A stretch of DNA of 64,000 nucleotides from Candidatus Omnitrophota bacterium (GCA_028865345.1 JAGWKL010000005.1:21577-85576), one strand, 5' to 3'. Shown: positions 7,960 through 53,775, numbered from the stretch's first letter. Program-made: numbers and translations. Notes: a model not told the origin generated them from the letters alone.

Positions 7960-7993
7960 AGTAACCATTGGCCCAAGAAAGGAACAGGGAACC

Positions 7994-8613: not shown

Positions 8614-10290
8614 ATGTCTGATATCAGAAAGTTCTCCCGTTTGGTTGTCGACGGCAATGACCGCGCACCCAACCGGTCCATGCTGCGCGCCACCGGGTTC
8701 AAGGATGAGGATTTTGGCAAAGCCCAAATCGGCGTGGTTTCCACCTGGAGCATGCTCACCCCCTGCAACATGCACATTGATAAATTGGCCGCCAAGGCGG
8801 TGGAGGGGGTTGACGCCGCCGGCGGCAAGGGCATCATTTTCGGCACCATCACCGTGGCCGACGGCATTTCCATGGGCACCGAGGGCATGAAGTATTCCCT
8901 GGTTTCCCGCGAGGTGATCGCGGATTCCGTGGAAACGGTCGCCGGATGCGAAGGCTTCGACGGGCTGGTGGCCGTGGGCGGCTGCGACAAGAACATGCCC
9001 GGTTGTGTGATCGCCATGGCCCGCCTGAACCGTCCGTCGGTGTTTGTTTATGGCGGCACCATTTTGCCCGGCTGCCTGCATGGACAGAACCTGGACATCG
9101 TTTCCGTATTTGAAGCGGTTGGCAAACATGCCGCCCGGAAAATTTCCGACCAGGAATTAAAAGATATCGAAAGCTGCGCCATACCGGGTCCCGGTTCATG
9201 CGGGGGGATGTACACGGCCAATACCATGGCCAGCGCCATCGAGGCTCTGGGCATGAGTCTTCCCAACAGCTCCATGCAAATTGCCGTGTCCCGGGAGAAA
9301 CAATTGGATTGTTTTAATGCCGGCGCCGCCGTCCTGGATTTATTGAAACGGAATCTCAGGCCCCGCGACATCATGACCAAAAAAGCTTTTGAAAATGCCA
9401 TTTGCGTGGTCACCGCCTTGGGCGGATCGACGAATGCCGTTTTGCATCTCATGGCCATTGCCCATGCGGCAGGCGTCAAATTAAACCTCGATGATTTCAC
9501 CCGCGTGAGCAAAAAAGTTCCGGTGTTGGCCGACCTTAAGCCCAGCGGCCGTTTTGTAACGGCGGAATTGGCGGCCATCGGCGGGCTTTTGCCGTTGATG
9601 AAAATGCTTTTGGACAAAGGCCTGTTGCACGGCGAGTGCATGACCGTGACAGGAAAAACCATGCGTGCCAATTTAGCTGATGTCAAACCATACCCCGCGG
9701 GCCAAGAGATCATCAGGCCGTTGGATAACCCCATTAAGAAGGAAGGCCATCTGGTCATTTTATATGGTAATCTTGCTCCTGAGGGTTCGGTAGCCAAGAT
9801 CACCGGCAAGGAAGGGTTGTCTTTCAGCGGGCGGGCCAAGGTTTTTGATTCGGAAGAAAAGGCGCTCAAAGCCATATTAGGCGGCAAAATTGTCAAGGGG
9901 GATGTGGTAGTGGTCCGCTATGAAGGCCCCCGCGGCGGTCCCGGCATGCGCGAGATGCTTTCTCCCACATCGGCCATTGCGGGCCGGGGACTCGGCAAGG
10001 ATGTCGCCTTGATCACCGACGGGCGGTTTTCCGGAGGTTCACACGGTTTTGTGGTAGGGCACATCACGCCCGAGGCTTTTAACGGCGGGCTTTTGGGTAT
10101 CGTCAAAAACGGCGATACCATCACCATTGACGCCGTCAAAAGGCAGATCGATCTTCTCCTCCCTGCGGCGGAAATCAAGAAGCGCCAAAAAGCCTGGGAA
10201 GCGCCAAAACCAAAATATACCCGCGGTGTCTTGGCCAAGTACGCTAAATTGGTCACCAGCGCCTCCAGTGGTGCAGTGACGGACAAATAA
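8614..10290 (+). CDS. ilvD: Dihydroxy-acid dehydratase.
   Basis: Matches the IlvD/Edd family throughout (CDKNMPG, SGGSHG). The ATG at 8614 comes straight after the leuD stop. Confidence 0.93.
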
Positions 10291-10293
10291 CTT

Positions 10294-10407
10294 ATGGCAG
10301 GCAATTCTTTCGGACAGTTTTTTAAGATCACCACCTTCGGCGAAAGCCACGGGCCCGCGATTGGGGGCGTCAAAAGGCCCAATTGCTTCGACGTCGAAAG
10401 AGGTTAA
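10294..10407 (+). other. Upstream ORF (37 aa) that duplicates the first 24 codons of aroC and ends in a conserved linker.
   Basis: Translation is [37 protein letters not shown]. The ATG lies 3 nt after the ilvD stop. The TAA overlaps the aroC RBS 2 nt before the aroC ATG. Confidence 0.5.
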
Positions 10408-10409
10408 TT

Positions 10410-11477
10410 ATGGCTGGTAATTCTTTTGGTCAGCTTTTTAAAATTACTACTTTTGGTGAAAGTCACGGACCTGCGATTGGGGTCGTCATTGACGGGGTGC
10501 CGCCCAAACTGCCATTGACCGAAGCAGACATTCAAAAAGATTTGGATCGCCGCCGTCCCGGCCAAAGCAAAATCACCACCCAGCGCCGGGAACCTGATAA
10601 GGCCGAGATCCTTTCCGGTGTCTTTGAAGGCAAAACAACAGGCGCGCCGCTGGCCATCCTCATCCGCAATACGGACGCCCGTTCCAAAGATTATGAGAAT
10701 ATCAAAGACGTGTTCCGTCCGGGCCATGCGGATTTCAGCTATATGGCTAAATACGGGATCCGAGACCACCGTGGCGGCGGGAGATCGTCAGGCCGGGAAA
10801 CCGCCTGTCGGGTCGCCGCCGGTGCGGTGGCCAAAAAGATTTTGGCCGGGCATAAGGTCGGGATCATTGTTTATACATTGTCCGTCGCGGGCGCCTATGC
10901 CCAGGAGATTGATTACAGTGTCATCGAAAAAAACGCGGTGCGTACCGCCGATATGAAAGCCGCCGGGCTCATGATCGCCAAGATTGAAGAGGCGCGCAAG
11001 AACGGCGATTCGCTGGGCAGCACCCTGCAGTGCGTTGTGAAAAATTGCCCTGCGGGCCTGGGCGATCCCTGCTTTGATAAACTCAATGCGCGCCTGGCCC
11101 AGGCATTGATGTCCATAGCGACCGTCAAGGGTATTGAATTCGGCGATGGGTTCGCCGCCAGCCAGCTGACGGGTTCCATCAACAACGACCGGTTTGTCCT
11201 TAAGGGTAAGAAAGTGGGGACCGCCACCAACCATTCCGGCGGCATCATGGGCGGCATATCCACCGGCGAAGACATCACCATCCGTATGGCATTGAAGCCG
11301 CCGTCATCCATTTCCAGGCTGCAGAAGACAATCAACGAGAAACAACAGGAAGTCGAAGTCCGGGTCAAAGGCCGCCATGATCCGTGCCTCGCCCCGAGAG
11401 TTGTCCCTGTGGCTGAAGCCATGATCGCCCTGACGCTGGTGGATTGTTTGATGATCCAGAAAGCCACAAATTTATAA
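10410..11477 (+). CDS. aroC: Chorismate synthase.
   Basis: N-terminus [29 protein letters not shown] and full-length AroC similarity. The SD GAAAGAGG is present. The ORF track's start at 10383 is an upstream TTG artefact. Confidence 0.93.
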   Translation: MAGNSFGQLFKITTFGESHGPAIGVVIDGVPPKLPLTEADIQKDLDRRRPGQSKITTQRREPDKAEILSGVFEGKTTGAPLAILIRNTDARSKDYENIKDVFRPGHADFSYMAKYGIRDHRGGGRSSGRETACRVAAGAVAKKILAGHKVGIIVYTLSVAGAYAQEIDYSVIEKNAVRTADMKAAGLMIAKIEEARKNGDSLGSTLQCVVKNCPAGLGDPCFDKLNARLAQALMSIATVKGIEFGDGFAASQLTGSINNDRFVLKGKKVGTATNHSGGIMGGISTGEDITIRMALKPPSSISRLQKTINEKQQEVEVRVKGRHDPCLAPRVVPVAEAMIALTLVDCLMIQKATNL

Positions 11478-11487
11478 ATCCATTGTC

Positions 11488-11553
11488 ATGCAGGATCAAA
11501 AAGTCATTTTAAATATTCCCTGTTCCTTCGACGGCGCCGGGGTACATGGATAA
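11488..11553 (+). other. Upstream ORF copy 1 (21 aa) of the SDR start-duplication module.
   Basis: Translation is MQDQKVILNIPCSFDGAGVHG*. Its TAA overlaps the next ATG (ATGGATAA). Confidence 0.4.
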
Positions 11554-11611
11554 TCGAAAAGTTATTCTCAATATTCCCTGTTCCTTCGAGGTCGGAAGGT
11601 TAAATGGATAA
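11546..11611 (+). other. Upstream ORF copy 2 (21 aa) of the SDR start-duplication module.
   Basis: Translation is MDNRKVILNIPCSFEVGRLNG*. It duplicates ATGGATAATCG(A/G)AAAGTT of the SDR gene. Its TAA overlaps SDR codons 2-3. Confidence 0.45.
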
Positions 11612-12452
11612 TCGGAAAGTTGTCCTGATTACGGGGTGTTCAAGCGGGTTTGGGCTGTCTACGGCTGTACGATTGGCTGCGAGCGGCCATTTTGTTTGGG
11701 CGACGATGAGGGACACGTCCAAAAGGTTCCGCCTGGAAAATGGGCTGGCCAAGCACAGGGCCCAGGCTTTTATCCGCGCGCTGGATGTCACGCAACCTCT
11801 TACCATCCAAAATGTCGTTGATGAAATCGACCAAACCCATGGGCGTATTGATGTGCTGGTCAATAACGCGGGCTATTTGGTCGCGGGGTTCTTTGAGGAT
11901 TTGAAGCCCGAGGAGATCCGCGCGCAGATGGAAACCAATTTTTTCGGGGCACAGAATGTCTGCCGCGGGGTTCTGCCTTTGATGCGCCGGCAAAAGAAGG
12001 GCAGGATCATCAATATTTCCAGTATTGCCGGGCAAATAGGCACTCCGACGCTGGGAGCGTACAATGCCAGCAAGTGGGCGCTGGAGGGATTCAGCGAAAG
12101 CCTTTATTTTGAACTTAAGCCCTTCGGGATTTCCGTTTCCCTGCTGGAACCCGGCCTTTATACAACCGAACTTTTCAGCAAGAATATCCGTTACGCACAG
12201 GATTTTGACAATCCCCAAAGCCCGTATTTCAGCCTGAACCGGAAAATTAAGGCGTTTTCCCATAAGTTCCATAAACTTGGGAAGGACCCCAACCGGATAG
12301 CCGGGCTGATTGAACGGATCATCAATGAGAGGTCCCCGCGTTTGCGCTATGTTTCCGATTTTCCATCGTGGGTAAGGATCAATGCCCAAAAGATCCTGCC
12401 GCCGGCCTGGGTGGCCTATATTCTCAGGAGGGTTTTTCATGCAGACAAATAA
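11604..12452 (+). CDS. Short-chain dehydrogenase/reductase (SDR family oxidoreductase).
   Basis: TGCSSGFG Rossmann motif, NNAG, and the catalytic S...YxxxK (YNASK). Confidence 0.85.
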   Translation: MDNRKVVLITGCSSGFGLSTAVRLAASGHFVWATMRDTSKRFRLENGLAKHRAQAFIRALDVTQPLTIQNVVDEIDQTHGRIDVLVNNAGYLVAGFFEDLKPEEIRAQMETNFFGAQNVCRGVLPLMRRQKKGRIINISSIAGQIGTPTLGAYNASKWALEGFSESLYFELKPFGISVSLLEPGLYTTELFSKNIRYAQDFDNPQSPYFSLNRKIKAFSHKFHKLGKDPNRIAGLIERIINERSPRLRYVSDFPSWVRINAQKILPPAWVAYILRRVFHADK

Positions 12453-19059: not shown

Positions 19060-22000
19060 TTGACCATGCTTAGAAAAATTTTGAGCCTGACCGTTATTTT
19101 CTGTTTTTTTCTCACAACTTTAACCCCCTATCCCAAAGCCCACGCAGATATAATGGCCGCCCTGCCGGCGCCCGGGACCATGGTCAATTTAAGCCCGGCT
19201 TACCAGCCTGTATTGATCAAGGGTTTGACCGTTCATAAAGACAATCCGTTCCTTTTTGATTTCATGGTGGATACCGGCAACAGCGGCATGACCGGCGCCC
19301 GGCTGAAGAAAGAAAGCGACCGCCTGGTCAAATACTTTTTCGCCTGCTTGACCATCCCCGAAAAAGATCTGTGGGTCAACCTTTCCCCATATGAAAAGAA
19401 CCGCATGATCCCCAGAGCCCTTGGTCAGACCGCGTTGGGACGCGATCTGTTGGCCGAAGATTATATCCTTAAACAGTTGACTGCTTCCCTAATATATCCC
19501 GAAAAAGACCTTGGCAGGACCTTCTGGAACAGGGTTTATGCAAAAGCCCGGCAGATGTACGGCACCACCCAGATCCCGGTGAATACCTTCAATAAGGTAT
19601 GGATCGTTGCTGATAAAGCTACTGTATATGAGCATGGCCAGACGGCGTTCGTGGTCAGGGGACACCTGAAGGTGATGCTTGAAAAAGATTATTTGGCCTT
19701 GAAGAAACATATGGCGGGTGCTGTTGAAGGCCGGGCGGGGTCTTCCCGGACCAATGACCTTGGCTCCCAGATTGTGCGCGAGATCGTCCTGCCCGAGATC
19801 GATAAAGAAGTGAACACGGGCAGGAATTTCGTTGCCCTGCGTCAGATATTTAATTCTCTTATCCTGGCCGCGTGGTACAAGAAGGAGCTCAAGCAGGCCT
19901 TGTTGAACCGGGTTTATGCCGATAAGAGCACCGTCAAAGGCATGAACCTGGCCGACCCTTCCGTCAAGGAAATGATCTATCAACGCTATCTGGAAGCGTA
20001 CAAGAAGGGTGTGTTCAATTATGTCAAGGAGTATACCCGGGCCGACGGCCAGGTGGTCCCCAGAAAATATTTTTCCGGCGGGTTTGTTTCAGATTTGAAA
20101 ATGACCGTAGACAAAGACCCTGCGGATGCGGCCCAGGCCGCCGAGCCGACGGGGAATATGGTGGACGTGTCCGTCGGGCTGAAGGTCAAAACCGGCGACC
20201 AGGCCATGACGCCCCAGACCAATGATTTCGATAATGCGTATGTCCTCTGGGACGAGCAGACCTCCCAGTTGGATGAACATACGGGCAAGGGCCTGGTCGG
20301 TGGAAAATCTTATCAGGCGGCCAGGTATTGGAAAGACGAACCGGCCAATAATCTGCGCAGTTTTTCCGCCACCGCCAAGGCTTCCATCGATTTTTTGAAT
20401 TCCAACCAGGATCTGCTTCCCGAGATATACCGTATCACCCGCGACCTTGATGCTTCCGATGAAACGGCCAGGGAAGAGGCCGGCGCCAGGATCCGAGCCT
20501 TGATCACGGGTACGCCCGTTCCTGCTGCCATTGAACAGGCCGTCCGCCAGGGCTACCGCAGATTGGTCAGCATCACGGACCAGCCGTTGGTGGCGGTGCG
20601 CAGCTCCGGGAAGGCGGAGGATATTTCCCTGAATGTCCCGGAACTGGCCGGGATCAATATGGGCGCCAATGCCGGGCAGCATGACACCTTCCTTGGGGAA
20701 ATGGGCGCAGATGCGGTCATTAAACGCTGGAGGGACTGTATCGCTTCGCTGTATACGGCCCGGGTCCTTGGCTACCGCGACAGCATGATGGTCTTCAGCG
20801 CCTTCGGCAAGATTCTGCCCAACAAACAATTGACCGCGGAGATCATTGCCAAGCTAAAGACAGGCAACGATGAGGACAGGCTTGTGGCCCGCGCCATTGA
20901 GGAAAAGAACATAGGGATCATCTCTTCTTTAAGATTATTGCATGCCTTGCAGCGCAACGGTTTTCAGGAAGCGGCGAAGCTGGTCAGTGAAGCGCGCGAG
21001 GATTTCATCAAGATCGCAAACATAGCCATGGGGGTCACGATCATGCCCATGGCCGGCGTTGACATTTCCTTCGTGGCCTTCGGGCATGACATGACCTCCT
21101 ACTGGACGGCGAAGGATTTCCAGGACGTTTCTCCCGAGGAATATCTTAATAAAGGCCGGGTGGTGACTGTCACCACCAATTACGGCCTGGGGGAATCTAT
21201 CGTGCAGGGGGCTGCCATGCCCGATACGTTTCTGGTGCACATTTTTAAAGATTCAAGCGGGGAACATGTCAATATCCTTTCCCGGACCCTGGGCACGAAA
21301 AGCGTGCAGACCGTATATGTCGCCCCTGTCATGGAGGCTCTCGGTCTCAACCATGCTTCGGTGAAACTGTTCCTGGAATTATTGGGGGCCGGGGATGTCA
21401 CGGCCTTCAGCGGCTTGGGCAACGCAAAGGATTATAACGAGATGCATCTTAAGAAGGGGGCCGATCTGGTCGTCATCAAAGACGTCCTGGAACGGTTGAT
21501 CAAAGAAAAGGTCGATGGGACATCCTCTGTGAAGATCACGGCCGATGAGCTGTCCCAATTCACGTATACCAGGGAAGAATTGGATAAACTGGCGCACCTT
21601 TTAAAGGCGTTCCAGAAGGACCCGGAGATCAAGACCATGTTCACGGACGTCCCGGAGGAGTTGCGCAACCAGTTTTCGGCCAGCGATGAGCAGGTCCGCA
21701 AGATCGCCCTGGAGTTCATGAAAAAGGCCAAAGATTTTCACGATCTCGTGGATATGGAAGGCGCCGTGGGCAAGAATTTCAGCCGGCTCAACGTCGCGGT
21801 GACGACCCAGCGCCGCCCCTCCAATGTGGACAAAGGCGACGTCAAGGAACCACGGATGATCAATATCCATTACACCTATGTGAAGGCCGGCGACGTCGAT
21901 AAGATCCGTGCCGGGAAGGAACGCATCACCAAGGCCGACGGACAGTTGACGAACATTGTGGTCGGTGAACAACTGGTCCAGGGCATCCCCACCCGCAACA

Positions 22001-25000
22001 GTTTTTCGGGGACGATTTACAAGATCGATGACTCCAAGGACCTGACGCCCCAATTTGAGGAGATCAAACGTCTGGCCGATGAAGGCCATAAGATCATTAT
22101 CCGTACCAATGAGACGACTCCGGACTATATCGATGTGTTGAAATATAAAAATGTGGTGGGGGTCATCGCCAATTCAGGCGGGGCGACCTCGCACGCGGCG
22201 GTCGTTTCCAGGGAGCTTGGTATCGCCACGGTGGTGGGCATTCAGAGCTGGCTGGACAGGCTGGCCGATACCCTGGGCCCGCAGAAGGCTATGGAGATCA
22301 AGGAATATCTCGATACGACCGGGAGCATTGTGACCGTGGACGCCAATGCCGGCGAAGAAACGGGTTTGGGTACCGTTTATGCAGGCCAGTTGCCCATCAG
22401 TACGCGCAACATCGAGATAGACATATCACGCCTTCCTTATATTTACACCAAGATCGGCTATATCATGGGCATGCCCCATCCGATGCTGGCCATGTCTAAA
22501 ATGTCTCAATATAAGGGATATTACGGGGTGGCGCTGATGCGCGGGGAGTTCGCTTACGCGGAGGAAGGCATCAATCCGCGGGCGGGGCGCGCCTATGATC
22601 TGATGCTGGTGGATGATTATTTGAAGACGTACAGGGACAACAATGCAGCCAAAGCTTATTATGAAAAATTGGGGCGGGCGGAAAGAGAAGCCCTCGACAC
22701 CTTCAGGACCCTTCTTGAACGAAGGGCGGATCTGCGCGCCCGGGGGCAGGACATTCCTTTGGATGAAACACAACGGTACATCGAGCAGTTCAAGAATAAG
22801 CGTCCGGGGGCTTTTTTAAAGAGCCTCTCCACCTACCAGCAGACGGACATTGAGCTGCTGAGGGAGCACAGCGAAGATGTGGGGAAATTGACCAAACAGA
22901 TCGTCGGGTATTTGTCGTACAATGAGTTTTTTGAAGCGGTGCACGGCGGGGCGGTGGCGACCATGGCCGCAGCCAACAGCCAGGAAAACGATACCGTCGT
23001 TTATCGCAGCATCGACTTCAAGAAAAACGAAGCGGCCGAACTGATCGGCTCCAAGATCTTTGACCCTATCCCCGAGCCCGCCACCATGATCGGTGAGCGC
23101 GGCGCCCGCTGGCTTTTAAAGCCGGAGAACAGGGTCATCCTTGTCGAAGAGATCCACATGCTCCTGCGGCAGGTCGACCGGGGTTATAAAAATATCGGTT
23201 TCATGTTCCCCTTTGTGTCTACTCCCCACGAGTTGGACCAGCTTTTGACCATATTGGATAATGAAGAAAGGAGTTTCAGTCTCCAGGAGAACAAACCTTT
23301 ATATTTAAGGGAAGTCGGACAAATGGTGGAACTGCCCAGCAACATCGTGGAGGCAGAACAGTTCATCCAGGTTCTCAAGAGGCACGAAGCCAGGACCAAA
23401 GCGTGGTTCAAGGAGAAGTTTTCCGTGGACATCAAGCGCAGCAGCTTTCTGTCCTTCGGGACCAATGACCTGACTCAGTTGACCCTCGGTGCGGACAGGG
23501 ACAATCCCAAAATGAGGCAATTGTTCAATGAGGCCAACCCCTTTGTCATCGAATCCATCCGCCACGTGGTCAATATGGCCAATAAATACGGGATCAAATG
23601 CGGGCTTTGCGGCCAGGCGCTGGTGAACCTGGTCAATGTGGACCCTGATGCGGCGGAGGAGATCCTCATGCTCCTCGGTTCCACGGGAGGGTATGCCGGG
23701 ACGGACTATCTGGGCACCCTGGCGGCCATCACCCGTTCCGCGAGCGCGACCCTGAAACACGGGGTGGTGGCGGATGAAGTGGCTGCCTCGGCGCAACCGA
23801 TCGCCCTGCACATTGAGTCCACCTTGGAGCACGGGGCGGCCGCCCGTCCTTTGTATCAGGTGACAACCCACGAGGATCTGGACAAAACCTATTTGGGTGA
23901 TTTTATCTTCGTCCATAACGGTATTTTGTCGGGTTTTGAAAAGGACGAGAAGTTAAAGCAGCAGCTTTCCCGTTTGGGGGCCATTATCTACAGCGATGAT
24001 AAACTGGCCGACGTGATCAAGACCGTCAGCAAGACCTTACGCGTGCCGGCCGTTAAGGTGGATGCAGGCGCCGACCGCCTCGCCGCTGTATCTAACGGAG
24101 ATAAAGTCACCATTGATTTCAACCGCCATGCCATTTACAGAGGCGCCCTGGAGGTTTCCATCGATGTGCCTGAAATAGCCAGCAAGATCGACGTCAACGC
24201 CAAACACCATCCGGAATTAAAGCGCATCGACTTTAACGAGACCTTCCGCGCTTCGGACTTGTACAAAAGCCTGGGCATCTATCCGACGGCTTTCCTGGCC
24301 TTTGATGACCCGAAAAAGCAAGGTGAGCTCGACCCTGAGACCATCGCCGAGATCAGGCATTTGATGCGCGAAACGCAGAGTTCTTCGGCCGTAGGAGTCC
24401 TGCGCCATGAGATCCAAAAGAGGATCACCTCTCAAATGGTCCAGCCTGATGCCAGAATGGTTTATGAGACCATGGACCTGCAGAGTGATGATCAGATCAA
24501 GCTGCTGGGCCATAAAGCCATGGGCGCCGTGGAAGAGGTCAACCCGCCCTTAGGGTTCAACGGCCTGGAAGCTTTGATGGACGACCCTCAATTGAGGGAA
24601 CTCTTCAAGGTCGAGATGTCCACCGTCAAGGGGCTGATCGACAAGGGGTATAATATTTCTATTCAATTCAACGGCATCAAGACCCCCAAGAGCCTGCAGG
24701 AGGCCATGGCGATCCTAAAGGAGATCGGCATTGATCCCTCCAAGGTCAAGGTGGGCATGAATACAGCCTGGCCCGGCAATTATCTTTTCCTGCAGGAATA
24801 CCTGGCCCAGGGGCTTTCCTTTGTGACCGTGGATGAAAGGAAGTTGGCCCAAGCGTATCTGGCGGCCGATCTTTATAAGAACGAAAGGGTCCGCGATACT
24901 TATGCATGGAACAATATCAAGGCGGACATGAATTATCCCGAAAGGATGATCGAACAGGCCGTTGCTGATTATTCCGCCAGAAAGCACGATGTCTTCATCC

Positions 25001-25317
25001 GGACCATCCCCTTTGATTCTGCCATGACAGCGCCCCCTGAAATGCCTGTTGCCGCCGTGAGGACGCAAGCGGCCGTCCCGCCGGGCGGTATCGACTTAAA
25101 TACCGCCAACATGGCCATGACGGTGACCAAAGACGCCGACGGCGGAGTAAAGGTGCTTACGCAGTCGAAACAATTGGGCCTTTTGATCGCGCGCATCAAG
25201 ACCAGGGGGGTATTCTCGGCGGACCCTGTCATTATCCGTATCACGCCCATAAGCCGCGCGCAGATATCGCCTTTGTTGGGCTTGCGGGTGTCACCGGCCC
25301 GGTCGGCCCAGGTTTAA
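19060..25317 (+). CDS. Giant (2085 aa) signal-peptide or anchor protein with PEP-utilising-enzyme domains (PPDK/PEPS-like).
   Basis: N-terminal hydrophobic signal. Nucleotide-binding motif VAVRSSGKAEDISLNVPELAG. Phospho-His swivel GGATSHAAVVSRELGIATVVG. TIM-barrel motif FLSFGTNDLTQLTLGADRDN. About 450 aa N-terminal and about 550 aa C-terminal have no clear assignment. Confidence 0.75.
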   Translation: MTMLRKILSLTVIFCFFLTTLTPYPKAHADIMAALPAPGTMVNLSPAYQPVLIKGLTVHKDNPFLFDFMVDTGNSGMTGARLKKESDRLVKYFFACLTIPEKDLWVNLSPYEKNRMIPRALGQTALGRDLLAEDYILKQLTASLIYPEKDLGRTFWNRVYAKARQMYGTTQIPVNTFNKVWIVADKATVYEHGQTAFVVRGHLKVMLEKDYLALKKHMAGAVEGRAGSSRTNDLGSQIVREIVLPEIDKEVNTGRNFVALRQIFNSLILAAWYKKELKQALLNRVYADKSTVKGMNLADPSVKEMIYQRYLEAYKKGVFNYVKEYTRADGQVVPRKYFSGGFVSDLKMTVDKDPADAAQAAEPTGNMVDVSVGLKVKTGDQAMTPQTNDFDNAYVLWDEQTSQLDEHTGKGLVGGKSYQAARYWKDEPANNLRSFSATAKASIDFLNSNQDLLPEIYRITRDLDASDETAREEAGARIRALITGTPVPAAIEQAVRQGYRRLVSITDQPLVAVRSSGKAEDISLNVPELAGINMGANAGQHDTFLGEMGADAVIKRWRDCIASLYTARVLGYRDSMMVFSAFGKILPNKQLTAEIIAKLKTGNDEDRLVARAIEEKNIGIISSLRLLHALQRNGFQEAAKLVSEAREDFIKIANIAMGVTIMPMAGVDISFVAFGHDMTSYWTAKDFQDVSPEEYLNKGRVVTVTTNYGLGESIVQGAAMPDTFLVHIFKDSSGEHVNILSRTLGTKSVQTVYVAPVMEALGLNHASVKLFLELLGAGDVTAFSGLGNAKDYNEMHLKKGADLVVIKDVLERLIKEKVDGTSSVKITADELSQFTYTREELDKLAHLLKAFQKDPEIKTMFTDVPEELRNQFSASDEQVRKIALEFMKKAKDFHDLVDMEGAVGKNFSRLNVAVTTQRRPSNVDKGDVKEPRMINIHYTYVKAGDVDKIRAGKERITKADGQLTNIVVGEQLVQGIPTRNSFSGTIYKIDDSKDLTPQFEEIKRLADEGHKIIIRTNETTPDYIDVLKYKNVVGVIANSGGATSHAAVVSRELGIATVVGIQSWLDRLADTLGPQKAMEIKEYLDTTGSIVTVDANAGEETGLGTVYAGQLPISTRNIEIDISRLPYIYTKIGYIMGMPHPMLAMSKMSQYKGYYGVALMRGEFAYAEEGINPRAGRAYDLMLVDDYLKTYRDNNAAKAYYEKLGRAEREALDTFRTLLERRADLRARGQDIPLDETQRYIEQFKNKRPGAFLKSLSTYQQTDIELLREHSEDVGKLTKQIVGYLSYNEFFEAVHGGAVATMAAANSQENDTVVYRSIDFKKNEAAELIGSKIFDPIPEPATMIGERGARWLLKPENRVILVEEIHMLLRQVDRGYKNIGFMFPFVSTPHELDQLLTILDNEERSFSLQENKPLYLREVGQMVELPSNIVEAEQFIQVLKRHEARTKAWFKEKFSVDIKRSSFLSFGTNDLTQLTLGADRDNPKMRQLFNEANPFVIESIRHVVNMANKYGIKCGLCGQALVNLVNVDPDAAEEILMLLGSTGGYAGTDYLGTLAAITRSASATLKHGVVADEVAASAQPIALHIESTLEHGAAARPLYQVTTHEDLDKTYLGDFIFVHNGILSGFEKDEKLKQQLSRLGAIIYSDDKLADVIKTVSKTLRVPAVKVDAGADRLAAVSNGDKVTIDFNRHAIYRGALEVSIDVPEIASKIDVNAKHHPELKRIDFNETFRASDLYKSLGIYPTAFLAFDDPKKQGELDPETIAEIRHLMRETQSSSAVGVLRHEIQKRITSQMVQPDARMVYETMDLQSDDQIKLLGHKAMGAVEEVNPPLGFNGLEALMDDPQLRELFKVEMSTVKGLIDKGYNISIQFNGIKTPKSLQEAMAILKEIGIDPSKVKVGMNTAWPGNYLFLQEYLAQGLSFVTVDERKLAQAYLAADLYKNERVRDTYAWNNIKADMNYPERMIEQAVADYSARKHDVFIRTIPFDSAMTAPPEMPVAAVRTQAAVPPGGIDLNTANMAMTVTKDADGGVKVLTQSKQLGLLIARIKTRGVFSADPVIIRITPISRAQISPLLGLRVSPARSAQV

Positions 25318-36104: not shown

Positions 36105-36154
36105 ATCAATACGTTGCTTATATTCCCTGTTTCTTCGGCGCCGTTAGGTTTTAT

Positions 36155-52609: not shown

Positions 52610-53659
52610 ATGTACGAAAAAGAGCTGGAATATCCGGTTAAGACCGTTCGTGCCGGTGTTTGGGGTGTCAGCGGATATACCGGCCGCGAAGTTTTTTCGC
52701 TGCTTTTGAAACACCGGGGCGTGAGGGTGACCTATGTGGCCGCCAACAACACCCAAGGGCCTTTGCCTGAAATTTTTCAGGAATTCCTGAACCGTACGAC
52801 CCTGGTTTGCCGCCCATTCAGCGTCAAGAAAACCGCGAAAAGGTGTGACGTGGTTTTCTTGGCCTTGCCGCACACTCAGTCCATGGCGGTGGTGCCGAAG
52901 TTATTAAAAGCGGGCTTAAAGGTCATTGACTTAAGCGCAGACTACAGGCTTAAAAGCCCCGAGGTTTATGAACAGTGGTATGGGCACAAACATGACGATA
53001 TAAGGAATCTAAGCAAGGCCGTTTACGGTCTGCCGGAGTTGTTTCGTCAGAAAATAAAAGGGGCCGTCTTTGTGGCCAATCCGGGCTGCTACCCTACGGC
53101 GGCCGTTTTGGGGCTGGCGCCGTTGATCGCCACTGCCAAGGACATTTTGTCCATCGTCGTGGACGCCAAATCAGGGGTTTCCGGCGCCGGACGTAAGGCC
53201 GCGGTGGAAAAGCTTTTCGGCGAGGTCAGTGAAAACTTCAAGGCGTATAAAGTGTTGAGCCATCAGCACGCGCCGGAAATCGAGCAATATTGTTCTCAAT
53301 TGGCCGGCAGGGAAACACCCATTCATTTTGTGGCGCACCTGCTTCCCATCACGCGGGGCATTTTAAATACGATGTATGTGCATTTAAAAGAGGGCATTGC
53401 TTTAAATCAACTGTACAATCTTTATAAGAAATTTTATAAGATCGAGCCTTTTGTGCGCGTCCATCCGTTGGGAAGCCAGCCGGAGGTCAAGAGTGTGGCC
53501 AATACCAATTTCTGCGATATCGGTTTGGCGGTAAGCCCAGACAAGAAGATGGTGGTCATTACGTCGGCCATTGATAATTTGGTCAAAGGCGCCGCCGGAC
53601 AGGCGGTACAAAACATGAATTTGATGCTGGGATTTAATGAAACTGAAGGATTGTTATGA
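52610..53659 (+). CDS. argC: N-acetyl-gamma-glutamyl-phosphate reductase.
   Basis: ArgC family with the active-site Cys (PGCYPT). The ATG at 52610 follows SD GAGGA. The ORF track's 52589 start is an upstream TTG. Confidence 0.9.
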   Translation: MYEKELEYPVKTVRAGVWGVSGYTGREVFSLLLKHRGVRVTYVAANNTQGPLPEIFQEFLNRTTLVCRPFSVKKTAKRCDVVFLALPHTQSMAVVPKLLKAGLKVIDLSADYRLKSPEVYEQWYGHKHDDIRNLSKAVYGLPELFRQKIKGAVFVANPGCYPTAAVLGLAPLIATAKDILSIVVDAKSGVSGAGRKAAVEKLFGEVSENFKAYKVLSHQHAPEIEQYCSQLAGRETPIHFVAHLLPITRGILNTMYVHLKEGIALNQLYNLYKKFYKIEPFVRVHPLGSQPEVKSVANTNFCDIGLAVSPDKKMVVITSAIDNLVKGAAGQAVQNMNLMLGFNETEGLL

Positions 53660-53775
53660 AGATGACTCGAGGCGGGGTAACGGCAGCTAAAGGGTTTTTG
53701 GCCAACGGGGTATCGGCAGGCAATATTCCCTATTGCTTCGAATTCGTAAGGGGTTCTGCATATGAAAATTATTAA
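53656..53775 (+). other. Upstream ORF (39 aa) that duplicates the argJ N-terminus and ends in the conserved linker.
   Basis: Translation is MKMTRGGVTAAKGFLANGVSAGNIPYCFEFVRGSAYENY*. Its ATG overlaps the argC TGA (ATGA). Its stop falls inside argJ codons 4-5. Confidence 0.5.

Follow-up and report, generated by a model that had tools for sequence, protein, structure and literature searches.

A putatively stranded aroC start and a short repeat found beside regenerated gene starts in Candidatus Omnitrophota

Background

How does a bacterial gene come to begin twice, with two copies of its first codons that differ almost only at synonymous positions? The question is raised by the junction of ilvD and aroC in a 64-kb window of DNA from a metagenome-assembled genome (MAG) of Candidatus Omnitrophota; the window is the whole stretch that was analysed, and all coordinates are window positions. 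Here the 5′ end of aroC, the chorismate synthase gene, occurs a second time as a 37-codon upstream open reading frame (uORF) behind ilvD. An original prediction, made from the sequence of the window, had described this duplication and read it as a sign of constraint on the peptides of both copies. Comparison with related loci points to a different answer: the uORF appears to be the original start of aroC, stranded at its ancestral position, and the spacer that divides it from the working gene belongs to a family of short repeats, named E here. The interest of the locus comes mainly from the recurrence of E together with regenerated gene starts. For the comparison 160 related loci were fetched, with about 40 relatives whose AroC is 77–93% identical, and 39 outgroup relatives served to polarise the differences between the two copies.

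The two copies of the aroC start

The features of the ilvD–aroC junction, all on the plus strand, are as follows.

10288..10290, plus strand: stop codon TAA of ilvD; the putative ancestral aroC start lies 3 nt further 3′
10292..10372, plus strand: repeat copy A, the putatively orphaned native 5′ end of aroC; G + C content at third codon positions (GC3) 0.65; nearer to relatives than copy B
10294..10407, plus strand: uORF of 37 codons plus TAA, the putatively orphaned ancestral aroC start (codons 1–26) reading on into element E
10369..10409, plus strand: element E at aroC, subtype 'CAAAAGGCCC', sequence TCAAAAGGCCCAATTGCTTCGACGTCGAAAGAGGTTAATT; nhmmer E-value 4e-8
10387..10398, plus strand: perfect 12-nt palindrome TTCGACGTCGAA within E; predicted hairpin weak
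10396..10403, plus strand: Shine-Dalgarno (SD)-like GAAAGAGG of the restarted aroC, inside the uORF, with the ATG 6 nt downstream; purine blocks are equivalent in other copies of E
10405..10407, plus strand: stop codon TAA of the uORF; the aroC ATG lies 2 nt downstream
10408..10488, plus strand: repeat copy B, which forms the functional 5′ end of aroC after the restart; in codons 2–24 GC3 is 0.17 and the share of T at third positions (T3) 0.70
10410..11477, plus strand: aroC, chorismate synthase, 355 aa (PF01264), 100% identical to P0001 of a Candidatus Omnitrophota MAG

The repeat search returned a direct repeat (D1) of 81 nt, 10292–10372 against 10408–10488, with 81% identity and a spacing of 116. 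Over codons 1–24 the copies differ at 14 nucleotides, of which 13 are synonymous third-position differences and one is nonsynonymous (TTT/CTT, F/L). These counts are exactly those of the original prediction, which had also listed the T- and A-ending codons of aroC correctly, quoted the uORF peptide as we find it and placed the uORF ATG 3 nt after the ilvD stop. At the 13 synonymous sites the aroC copy has T in 11 and A in two. Homology between the copies reaches nt 81, with a further nonsynonymous difference at codon 25 (GGC/GTC, Gly/Val). The longest identical run measures 10 nt (GCGATTGGGG, nt 64–73) and lies where the T-rich stretch ends, which makes it a candidate crossover core. The end at 10409 first given for the duplicated region takes in two spacer bases, TT, 5′ of the aroC ATG. 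Estimated by the Nei-Gojobori method, pS between A and B is 13/16 = 0.81 (saturated) and pN is 1/56 = 0.018. The uORF peptide contains five Phe codons, and its L to F replacement creates the pair FF.

The contrast in wobble bases, T or A in aroC against genome-typical bases in the upstream copy, was borne out, GC3 being 0.65 in the uORF copy, 0.17 in codons 2–24 of the aroC copy and 0.67 in the remainder of aroC. When 50 long ORFs of the window were cut into 17,608 windows of 23 codons, just 0.05% of these had a value of 0.17 or below, and the shift spans codons 2–21, about 20 codons. A general 5′ AT-richness of the genes of this genome was rejected as its cause: the 5′ GC3 of the other ORFs in the window ranges from 0.30 to 0.87, and the lowest of these (0.30) belongs to argJ, which is also restarted (see below).

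The doubt whether two copies really exist, raised with the prediction, was dispelled by further assemblies. The duplication is present with few single nucleotide polymorphisms (SNPs) in three further NCBI MAGs (L161–L163; 5–7 SNPs over 4 kb), and it is carried by Logan contig L164, which comes from an independent sequencing run, spans E and both junctions of copy B, and breaks within the uORF. That break indicates that the repeat troubles assemblers, as would be expected if two strain variants of the aroC start had been joined in tandem by mistake. Such an artefact is hardly credible, however, since the same junctions occur in four MAG assemblies with differing SNPs and in the independent run, L164 reads across E and both ends of copy B, and the spacer is a genuine repeat family, also present at other loci and in Joint Genome Institute (JGI) and European Nucleotide Archive (ENA) assemblies of other lineages.

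Variation among these genomes was also seen. At codon 20 of aroC three genomes have GGA and two have GGG; copy A and the outgroups share GGG, and GGA is derived, a hint of ongoing change. Among L161–L163 and the window, SNPs at locus positions 1258 and 3060 give all four allele combinations. This four-gamete pattern among four sibling genomes indicates recombination, or recurrent mutation, in the population.

Ancestry of the two copies

A tblastn search with the 26-aa N-terminus found a single aroC copy in each of the approximately 40 relatives, and the uORF was absent from all of them. In 21 of these relatives the ilvD stop is separated from the aroC ATG by 0–3 nt, in the context ...ACGGAyAAATAAnnATG, as at the uORF ATG. 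Since aroC of most relatives begins where the uORF ATG sits here, copy A occupies the ancestral start. It is also the native sequence: compared with L001, the nearest relative (AroC identity 93%), it has 9 differences in 72 nt and copy B has 16; third-position divergence from L001 is 0.33 for A, 0.67 for B and 0.40 for the remainder of the gene. At nine clear wobble sites polarisation assigned the common state to copy A, and the T or A that copy B carries there is derived. At least nine synonymous changes, all to T or A, thus arose on the functional copy. Copy B is ancestral only at two nonsynonymous sites, Leu9 (C in 30/39) and Val25 (T in 39/39); the orphan copy carries the derived replacements L9F and V25G and no clearly derived synonymous change. 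In one sibling genome the uORF copy also has F10S, which is therefore polymorphic.

The low dN/dS between the copies therefore points to ordinary protein constraint on the working gene and not on the uORF peptide. Peptide-level constraint on both copies, as originally proposed, does not hold up: pN and pS do give the low ratio foreseen, yet the signal vanishes once the changes are polarised, those derived in B being synonymous and those derived in the orphan nonsynonymous only, and the uORF frame, supposed to be conserved, is missing in the relatives. We find no evidence of peptide-level constraint on the uORF, and the low dN/dS is evidently an artefact of unpolarised changes.

Taken together, the comparison shows the uORF to be the stranded original start of aroC at its ancestral coupled position. 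In the ancestor, aroC began 1–3 nt 3′ of the ilvD stop, and would hence have been translationally coupled to ilvD. About 116 nt were inserted after aroC nt 80, comprising E, of about 38 nt, and aroC nt -2 to +80 copied anew. This second copy now serves as the real start of the gene, and the old one persists as a uORF that runs through E and ends 2 nt before the new ATG.

At the junction itself no promoter-like or terminator-like site was predicted (terminator scan of 10200–10450), and an Rfam scan of 10000–12000 at E-values up to 5 gave a chance-level match only and no RNA family.

The ilvD–aroC junction is a hot spot of insertion in relatives, where at least three kinds of cassettes with ORFs of about 200 aa were seen. 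The gap between the two genes measures 610–690 nt in L002, L004, L009, L011, L081, L086, L094, L103 and L112, and short relics of cassette 3′ ends lie 5′ of aroC in L085 and L101. In L108 (2317–3001) 42 nt of the aroC 5′ end are left as a remnant, after which come an MNT (nucleotidyltransferase)/HEPN-like gene pair, assigned from the ORF translations alone, and then the real aroC; no E is present there, and the real start is diverged and richer in A/T-ending codons than the remnant. In L106 (3001–3060) the aroC start is strongly rich in A and T at third positions, GC3 being 1/18 over codons 2–19 where the gene has 0.50. Its coupling to ilvD is direct, and this lineage carries E. An earlier restart, since resolved, could have left the L106 start as its scar.

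The spacer as a member of a short repeat family

The original prediction lacked the nature of the spacer as a repeat element, its recurrence at other genes and the extent of the homology out to nt 81. The 38-nt spacer between the copies is a member of family E, whose copies are 30–38 nt in size, with a pyrimidine-rich 5′ half (TTCCCTGTTCCTTC) and a weak palindrome; they also carry an SD-like GGAAGG/GAGG, as well as TTAA. The purine block that resembles an SD (GGAAGG, GAAAGAGG) lies in the 3′ half, which can pair with the 5′ half. Predicted hairpins are weak and non-uniform: the pairing CTTCG..CGAAG is possible in most copies, and the minimum free energy (MFE) folds vary by copy. Twelve copies align with the common core AAWAKKCCCWRTTSYTTCGA-NN-TCGNAAGG, usually followed by TTA(A) and ATG, and a profile built from the copies gave nhmmer E-values down to 1e-10. 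No terminal inverted repeats were found in the 12-copy alignment. The duplications that flank E have no fixed length (about 3, 24, 26, 64–66 and 80 nt). At aroC, the first 3–4 nt of E are shared with the end of repeat A (microhomology TCA).

Six copies of E lie in the window and others in L104, L106, L095, L100, L087 and L167; in 28 kb of the nearest relative no copy was found. A 22-mer of the spacer recurs with two mismatches at 25163–25184 on the minus strand, where none is expected by chance, and the match extends to 27/31 nt. Two of the six copies in the window are the following.

25152..25190, minus strand: the copy of E nearest to that at aroC, 27/31 identical; antisense in the 3′ part of an ORF of 2085 aa, with no restart
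36119..36154, plus strand: degenerate copy of E between convergent ORFs

The 2085-aa ORF (19060–25317) has a C-terminal GGIDLN-type motif, and the antisense E falls in its last 60 codons. Inverted copies were also observed. At 7979–7993, AAGGAACAGGGAACC stands directly 5′ of the TTG start of leuD (7994) and matches the E core (TTCCCTGTTCCTT) in reverse complement; in L087 and L100 inverted copies adjoin gene starts at the same position as at leuD of the window. In L100 (4058–4102) an inverted E replaces an intergenic region and the first three codons of an SDR gene, and no canonical start codon is visible. E can also be translated within a host protein: in L167 (42–140, protein P0200), which belongs to another lineage, it is read in frame in ArgJ as MKV-NIPCSFDFVSL-VGGGICSPQGF, the protein having 391 instead of 380 aa, with no restart ATG.

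Other sources of the spacer were considered. It is not a decayed continuation of aroC, as its local alignment to aroC codons 24–64 scores 12 against a shuffle mean of 12.2. With the 3′ end of ilvD it shares nothing beyond the 11-mer CGTCAAAAGGC, which occurs at 10134–10144 in the ilvD 3′ region and at 10367–10377 at the A/E junction; its score was reached by 2/500 shuffles and the match is probably due to chance. Exact-pattern scans of IMG/VR for E gave no match beyond one chance-level 18-mer in an unrelated coding region, so a viral or phage origin received no support from these scans. A plain tandem duplication by slippage was likewise rejected, because the copies do not abut and the 38-nt spacer is homologous to other loci.

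Recurrence of E with regenerated starts at other genes

The layout of an orphaned 5′ fragment, E and a restarted gene was found at aroC, at the SDR gene that comes next after aroC and at argJ in the window, and at leuD in L104. The two further cases of the window are the following.

11488..11603, plus strand: restart of the SDR gene, two tandem units of 58 nt (repeats D2, D3); real SDR ATG at 11604
53656..53761, plus strand: restart of argJ, an orphan start of 22 codons followed by E (53719–53758); the orphan ATG overlaps the argC stop, and the real argJ ATG is at 53762

The SDR units were found by a scan for start-proximal duplications. Each consists of the first 8 SDR codons and a 34-nt relative of E, so that two chained uORFs of 21 codons result, whose TAA (within ATGGATAA) overlaps the ATG that follows. 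Decay has gone further in the first unit, which has lost its SD. The SDR gene is restarted with one unit in L106, L169 and L170, and with a truncated E in L095.

The restart of argJ was found with the profile of E copies. Its orphan ATG overlaps the argC stop (ATGA) just as the real argJ start of L165, the closest relative, does. Four residues that are conserved elsewhere are replaced in the orphan copy (MKMTR versus MKIIK; AAK versus APK). As at aroC, the restarted copy is low in GC3 (0.29); the value is 0.57 in the orphan copy, 0.57 in the L165 start and 0.67 in the remainder of the gene.

In leuD of L104, L171 and L172, the first 26 nt occur twice, 25/26 identical, with E between them, in the order ATGCAACCATTTAAAAATCATTCAGG, CAAAAGGCCCAATTGTTTCGCTATCGAAAGGTTAT, ATGCAGCCATTT...; the L104 structure was confirmed in independent ENA and JGI assemblies.

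In all restart cases the first copy of the gene start is at the ancestral coupled position, E begins 24–80 nt into the coding sequence (CDS), and the second copy begins at the ATG, plus or minus 0–2 nt. The frame in which the resulting uORFs read E is the same throughout (..IPCSF.. or ..RPNCF..), and their stops lie from 2 nt before to 14 nt after the restart ATG.

The SDR gene (11604–12452) has 60–68% identity to all relatives, compared with 93% for AroC to L001. Nucleotide divergence from L001, about 0.18 up to the E/restart site of the SDR gene, jumps there to about 0.35 and drops back at about 12420. The gene evolves fast in all pairs of relatives, and import of the whole gene with E is not demonstrable from the divergence to L001.

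Proposed mechanism and alternative explanations

The explanation that we judge best, and to which we give an even chance of being correct as a whole, combines a stranded start, a restart mediated by E, a relay of translational coupling, and selection in place for a T-rich copy. The insertion would have originated by microhomology-guided copying or template switching: synthesis would leave aroC at ...GTCA, copy an E sitting elsewhere just 5′ of a start codon and land on the ATG of aroC itself, which would produce the duplication. The take-off microhomology is TCA at aroC and CAGG at leuD and argJ, both of which read TCAGGTATC at the breakpoint, and the landing is always at an ATG, as expected if the copied E normally precedes a start codon. 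The near-identity of the leuD copies in L104 shows that sequence of the genome itself can be duplicated in this way, and the two SDR units show that such units can be amplified in tandem.

Once the insertion was in place, ribosomes ending ilvD would re-initiate at the old ATG, as in the ancestor; in translating the uORF they would melt the pairing of the pyrimidine-rich half of E with the SD-like half and so expose the SD, terminate beside the new ATG, and re-initiate on aroC. Selection would then need only to keep the uORF open and correctly terminated. The geometry is that of coupling, with the uORF TAA 2 nt 5′ of the aroC ATG and the SD inside the uORF, and it recurs at the SDR gene, argJ, leuD of L104 and in L106. 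The uORF is thus most likely a putative relay of the coupling from ilvD to aroC and not a functional peptide.

The new start region would have gained C-to-T and G-to-A wobble changes because less structured initiation was favoured, while the old copy drifted. The predicted cost of opening -14..+13 at the aroC AUG is 9.5 kcal/mol and would be 14.2 with uORF-type codons; the predicted MFE of -40..+70 is -19.2 kcal/mol for the real sequence against -29.9 with uORF-type codons, and the real start is among the lowest 3–4% of synonymous recodings. The low GC3 of the restarted argJ, as a second wobble shift, and the derived GGA at aroC codon 20 speak for the same view. That copy B became T-rich through in-place selection for an open initiation region is a proposal on which we are evenly divided. 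Of the two causes suggested originally for the divergence, an AT-rich, weakly structured start agrees with the predicted folding, but the shift is longer than accessibility would lead one to expect. Divergence that avoids recombination between direct repeats agrees with the longest identical run of only 10 nt; it predicts change in either copy, however, and only B changed.

Several points weigh against the explanation just given. The relay is proposed from geometry, and the hairpin of E is weak and folds differently in different copies. Relatives in which cassettes have broken the coupling of aroC show only a small drop in 5′ GC3, so that loss of coupling alone does not usually drive so strong a shift. 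The shift over codons 2–21 exceeds the approximately 10–13 codons expected for start-site accessibility, and at least 10 selected synonymous changes, while the orphan changed two or three times, need fairly strong selection per site. No source copy of E with matching flanks was found, and the template-switch origin is a model. In a bolder form of the proposal E would be a new miniature element, a "restart" module of about 35 nt that enters the first 3–80 nt of a CDS, regenerates an intact gene with a new ribosome-binding site by returning to that gene's start codon, and turns the old start into a coupling uORF; this we regard as possible but somewhat unlikely.

A foreign allele might instead have been imported, in the form of about 100 nt (E and the first 63–73 nt of aroC) from a related Omnitrophota bacterium of lower GC in which E lay 5′ of aroC. 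The route would be homology-facilitated or short-patch illegitimate recombination, and each copy would once have been a working start in its own lineage. Differences that are nearly all synonymous are the pattern of diverged orthologues and would be explained in one step, for which the icd/e14 locus offers a precedent (PMC13626634), and the identity of the copies over GCGATTGGGG at the end of the T-rich stretch is what a crossover would leave. Copy B is also nearer to L106 (12/72 differences) than to L001 (16/72), and the L106 lineage has E and an aroC start with a GC3 of 0.17; L108 has its remnant and its diverged, A/T-ending real start around the MNT/HEPN cassette. The junction being a hot spot for insertions and the four-gamete sign of recombination among sibling genomes fit an import as well. 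Yet E stands upstream of aroC in no sampled relative; copy B has at least 11–12 differences per 72 nt from every sampled sequence, and its T3 of 0.70 is above that of every relative. The 25/26 identity of the leuD copies in L104 indicates that self-sequence can be duplicated, and aroC and argJ would need two separate imports, each from a donor of low GC3. We regard an import as a tentative alternative with the balance of probability against it. Two ways of generating the differences at once were rejected: mutagenesis by a diversity-generating retroelement, because the copies differ by C/T, G/A and A/T at wobble positions and not at template adenines and no reverse transcriptase gene lies in the neighbourhood; and a single burst of error-prone synthesis, because about 10 cytosines at nonsynonymous positions are untouched and the changes are confined to synonymous sites (hypergeometric P ~6e-5, by our own calculation, for 9/20 cytosines all at synonymous sites).

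If both copies were kept by selection on the peptide, the uORF would be a conserved regulatory leader, for example a Phe-rich attenuator; the raw pN of 0.018 against a pS of 0.81, the five Phe codons and the one replacement that creates FF are what such a leader would show. It is nevertheless very improbable, as the uORF is absent from the relatives, its clearly derived changes are all nonsynonymous (L9F, V25G) with F10S polymorphic, neither a terminator or alternative-hairpin architecture nor an Rfam match is present, the same layout recurs at argJ, leuD and the SDR gene with unrelated N-terminal peptides, and in argJ the protein sequence of the orphan copy is in decay. A Phe-sensing attenuator in particular was rejected on the lack of a terminator or alternative structure and of conservation, and on the polymorphic F10S. 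A role for the tail encoded by E, (N/K)(I/R)P.C.F(D/E).., as a nascent peptide that acts in cis on the ribosome is a distinctly unlikely, if less extreme, case. One frame is used in five apparently independent insertions (aroC, argJ of the window, argJ of L167, leuD of L104 and the SDR gene), for which chance gives about 0.01, the 5′ half of E is strongly conserved, and all genes concerned are in biosynthetic operons. Constraint at the DNA or RNA level explains the conservation equally well, however; inverted copies of E beside gene starts cannot be read in that frame, the tails past ..CxF.. vary and stop at different places, and no known arrest motif was recognised.

Significance

A very low dN/dS that mimicked a functional peptide vanished on polarising, which calls for caution in the discovery of uORFs from sequence only. 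At least four genes, in several Omnitrophota lineages, have a repeat of about 35 nt between a discarded and a regenerated start. This suggests that translation-initiation regions in operons of tightly coupled genes are replaced by a route that recurs and is apparently undescribed. The orphan start, which keeps the ancestral wobble bases beside the recoded one, offers a natural before/after pair for the response of synonymous sites to a changed initiation context. If E is indeed a restart module, an uncultivated phylum would have an unrecognised way of rewriting gene starts and translational coupling, and the synonymous recoding of the restarted copy would be its evolutionary footprint.

Comparison with known systems

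Translational coupling by termination and reinitiation, with unfolding by the ribosome of a hairpin that occludes the SD, operates in many bacterial operons and in the coat/replicase pair of phage MS2. The aroC locus is similar in that the uORF contains the SD and ends within a few nt of where aroC starts, and in that a complementary pyrimidine stretch stands just 5′ of the SD. It differs in that the upstream ORF, through which the coupling would run, is the discarded start of the same gene.

That bacterial genes begin with AT-rich codons and with less mRNA structure is said to have been reported by Kudla and colleagues in 2009 and by Bentele and colleagues in 2013. The synonymous 5′ enrichment in T and A and the lower predicted folding energy at the aroC start agree with this, but with GC3 at 0.17 against 0.67 over about 20 codons aroC goes beyond any other ORF of the window and beyond aroC of any relative.

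In Escherichia coli, icd and icdC flank prophage e14, the end of the gene having been duplicated and the gene now running into the incoming copy (Hill et al. 1989, described in PMC13626634). In both systems the end of a gene is present twice, the native end is left as a fragment and the differences are mostly synonymous (here 13 synonymous and one or two nonsynonymous). Here, however, it is the 5′ and not the 3′ end, about 38 nt and no integrase or prophage lie between the copies, and no recombinase ORF was found in the flanking genes; the near-identical leuD copies of L104 point to self-duplication and not to an orthologue borne by an element.

Small interspersed repeats that insert in or near genes include repetitive extragenic palindromic (REP) sequences, transposable elements of the miniature inverted-repeat type (MITEs) and Rickettsia palindromic elements (RPEs) (reviewed in PMC10969869). 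Like these, E is short, dispersed and multi-copy, with a palindromic core and both orientations, and like RPEs it can be translated in frame in a host protein (ArgJ P0200, L167). Unlike MITEs, it has neither terminal inverted repeats nor a target duplication of fixed length; RPEs measure about 100–150 nt against 30–38 nt for E, which has no Rfam match. E differs from all three in being tied to duplications of 3–80 nt that set out from the start codon and restore the beginning of the gene. Full-text literature offered analogues (icd/e14, RPEs) and no description of a short element with start-codon-anchored duplications, which is weak evidence of absence; as far as is known, the restart of gene starts linked to E is undescribed so far.

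Templated insertions at rearrangement junctions arise by microhomology-mediated template switching or by short-patch double illegitimate recombination, the latter reportedly described by Harms and colleagues in 2016. The restarts share with them an ectopic short sequence at the duplication junction and microhomologies of 3–5 nt (TCA at aroC, CAGG at leuD and argJ, ATG at the landing). They differ in that the same filler family is found at four genes and in several lineages, unlike a random filler.

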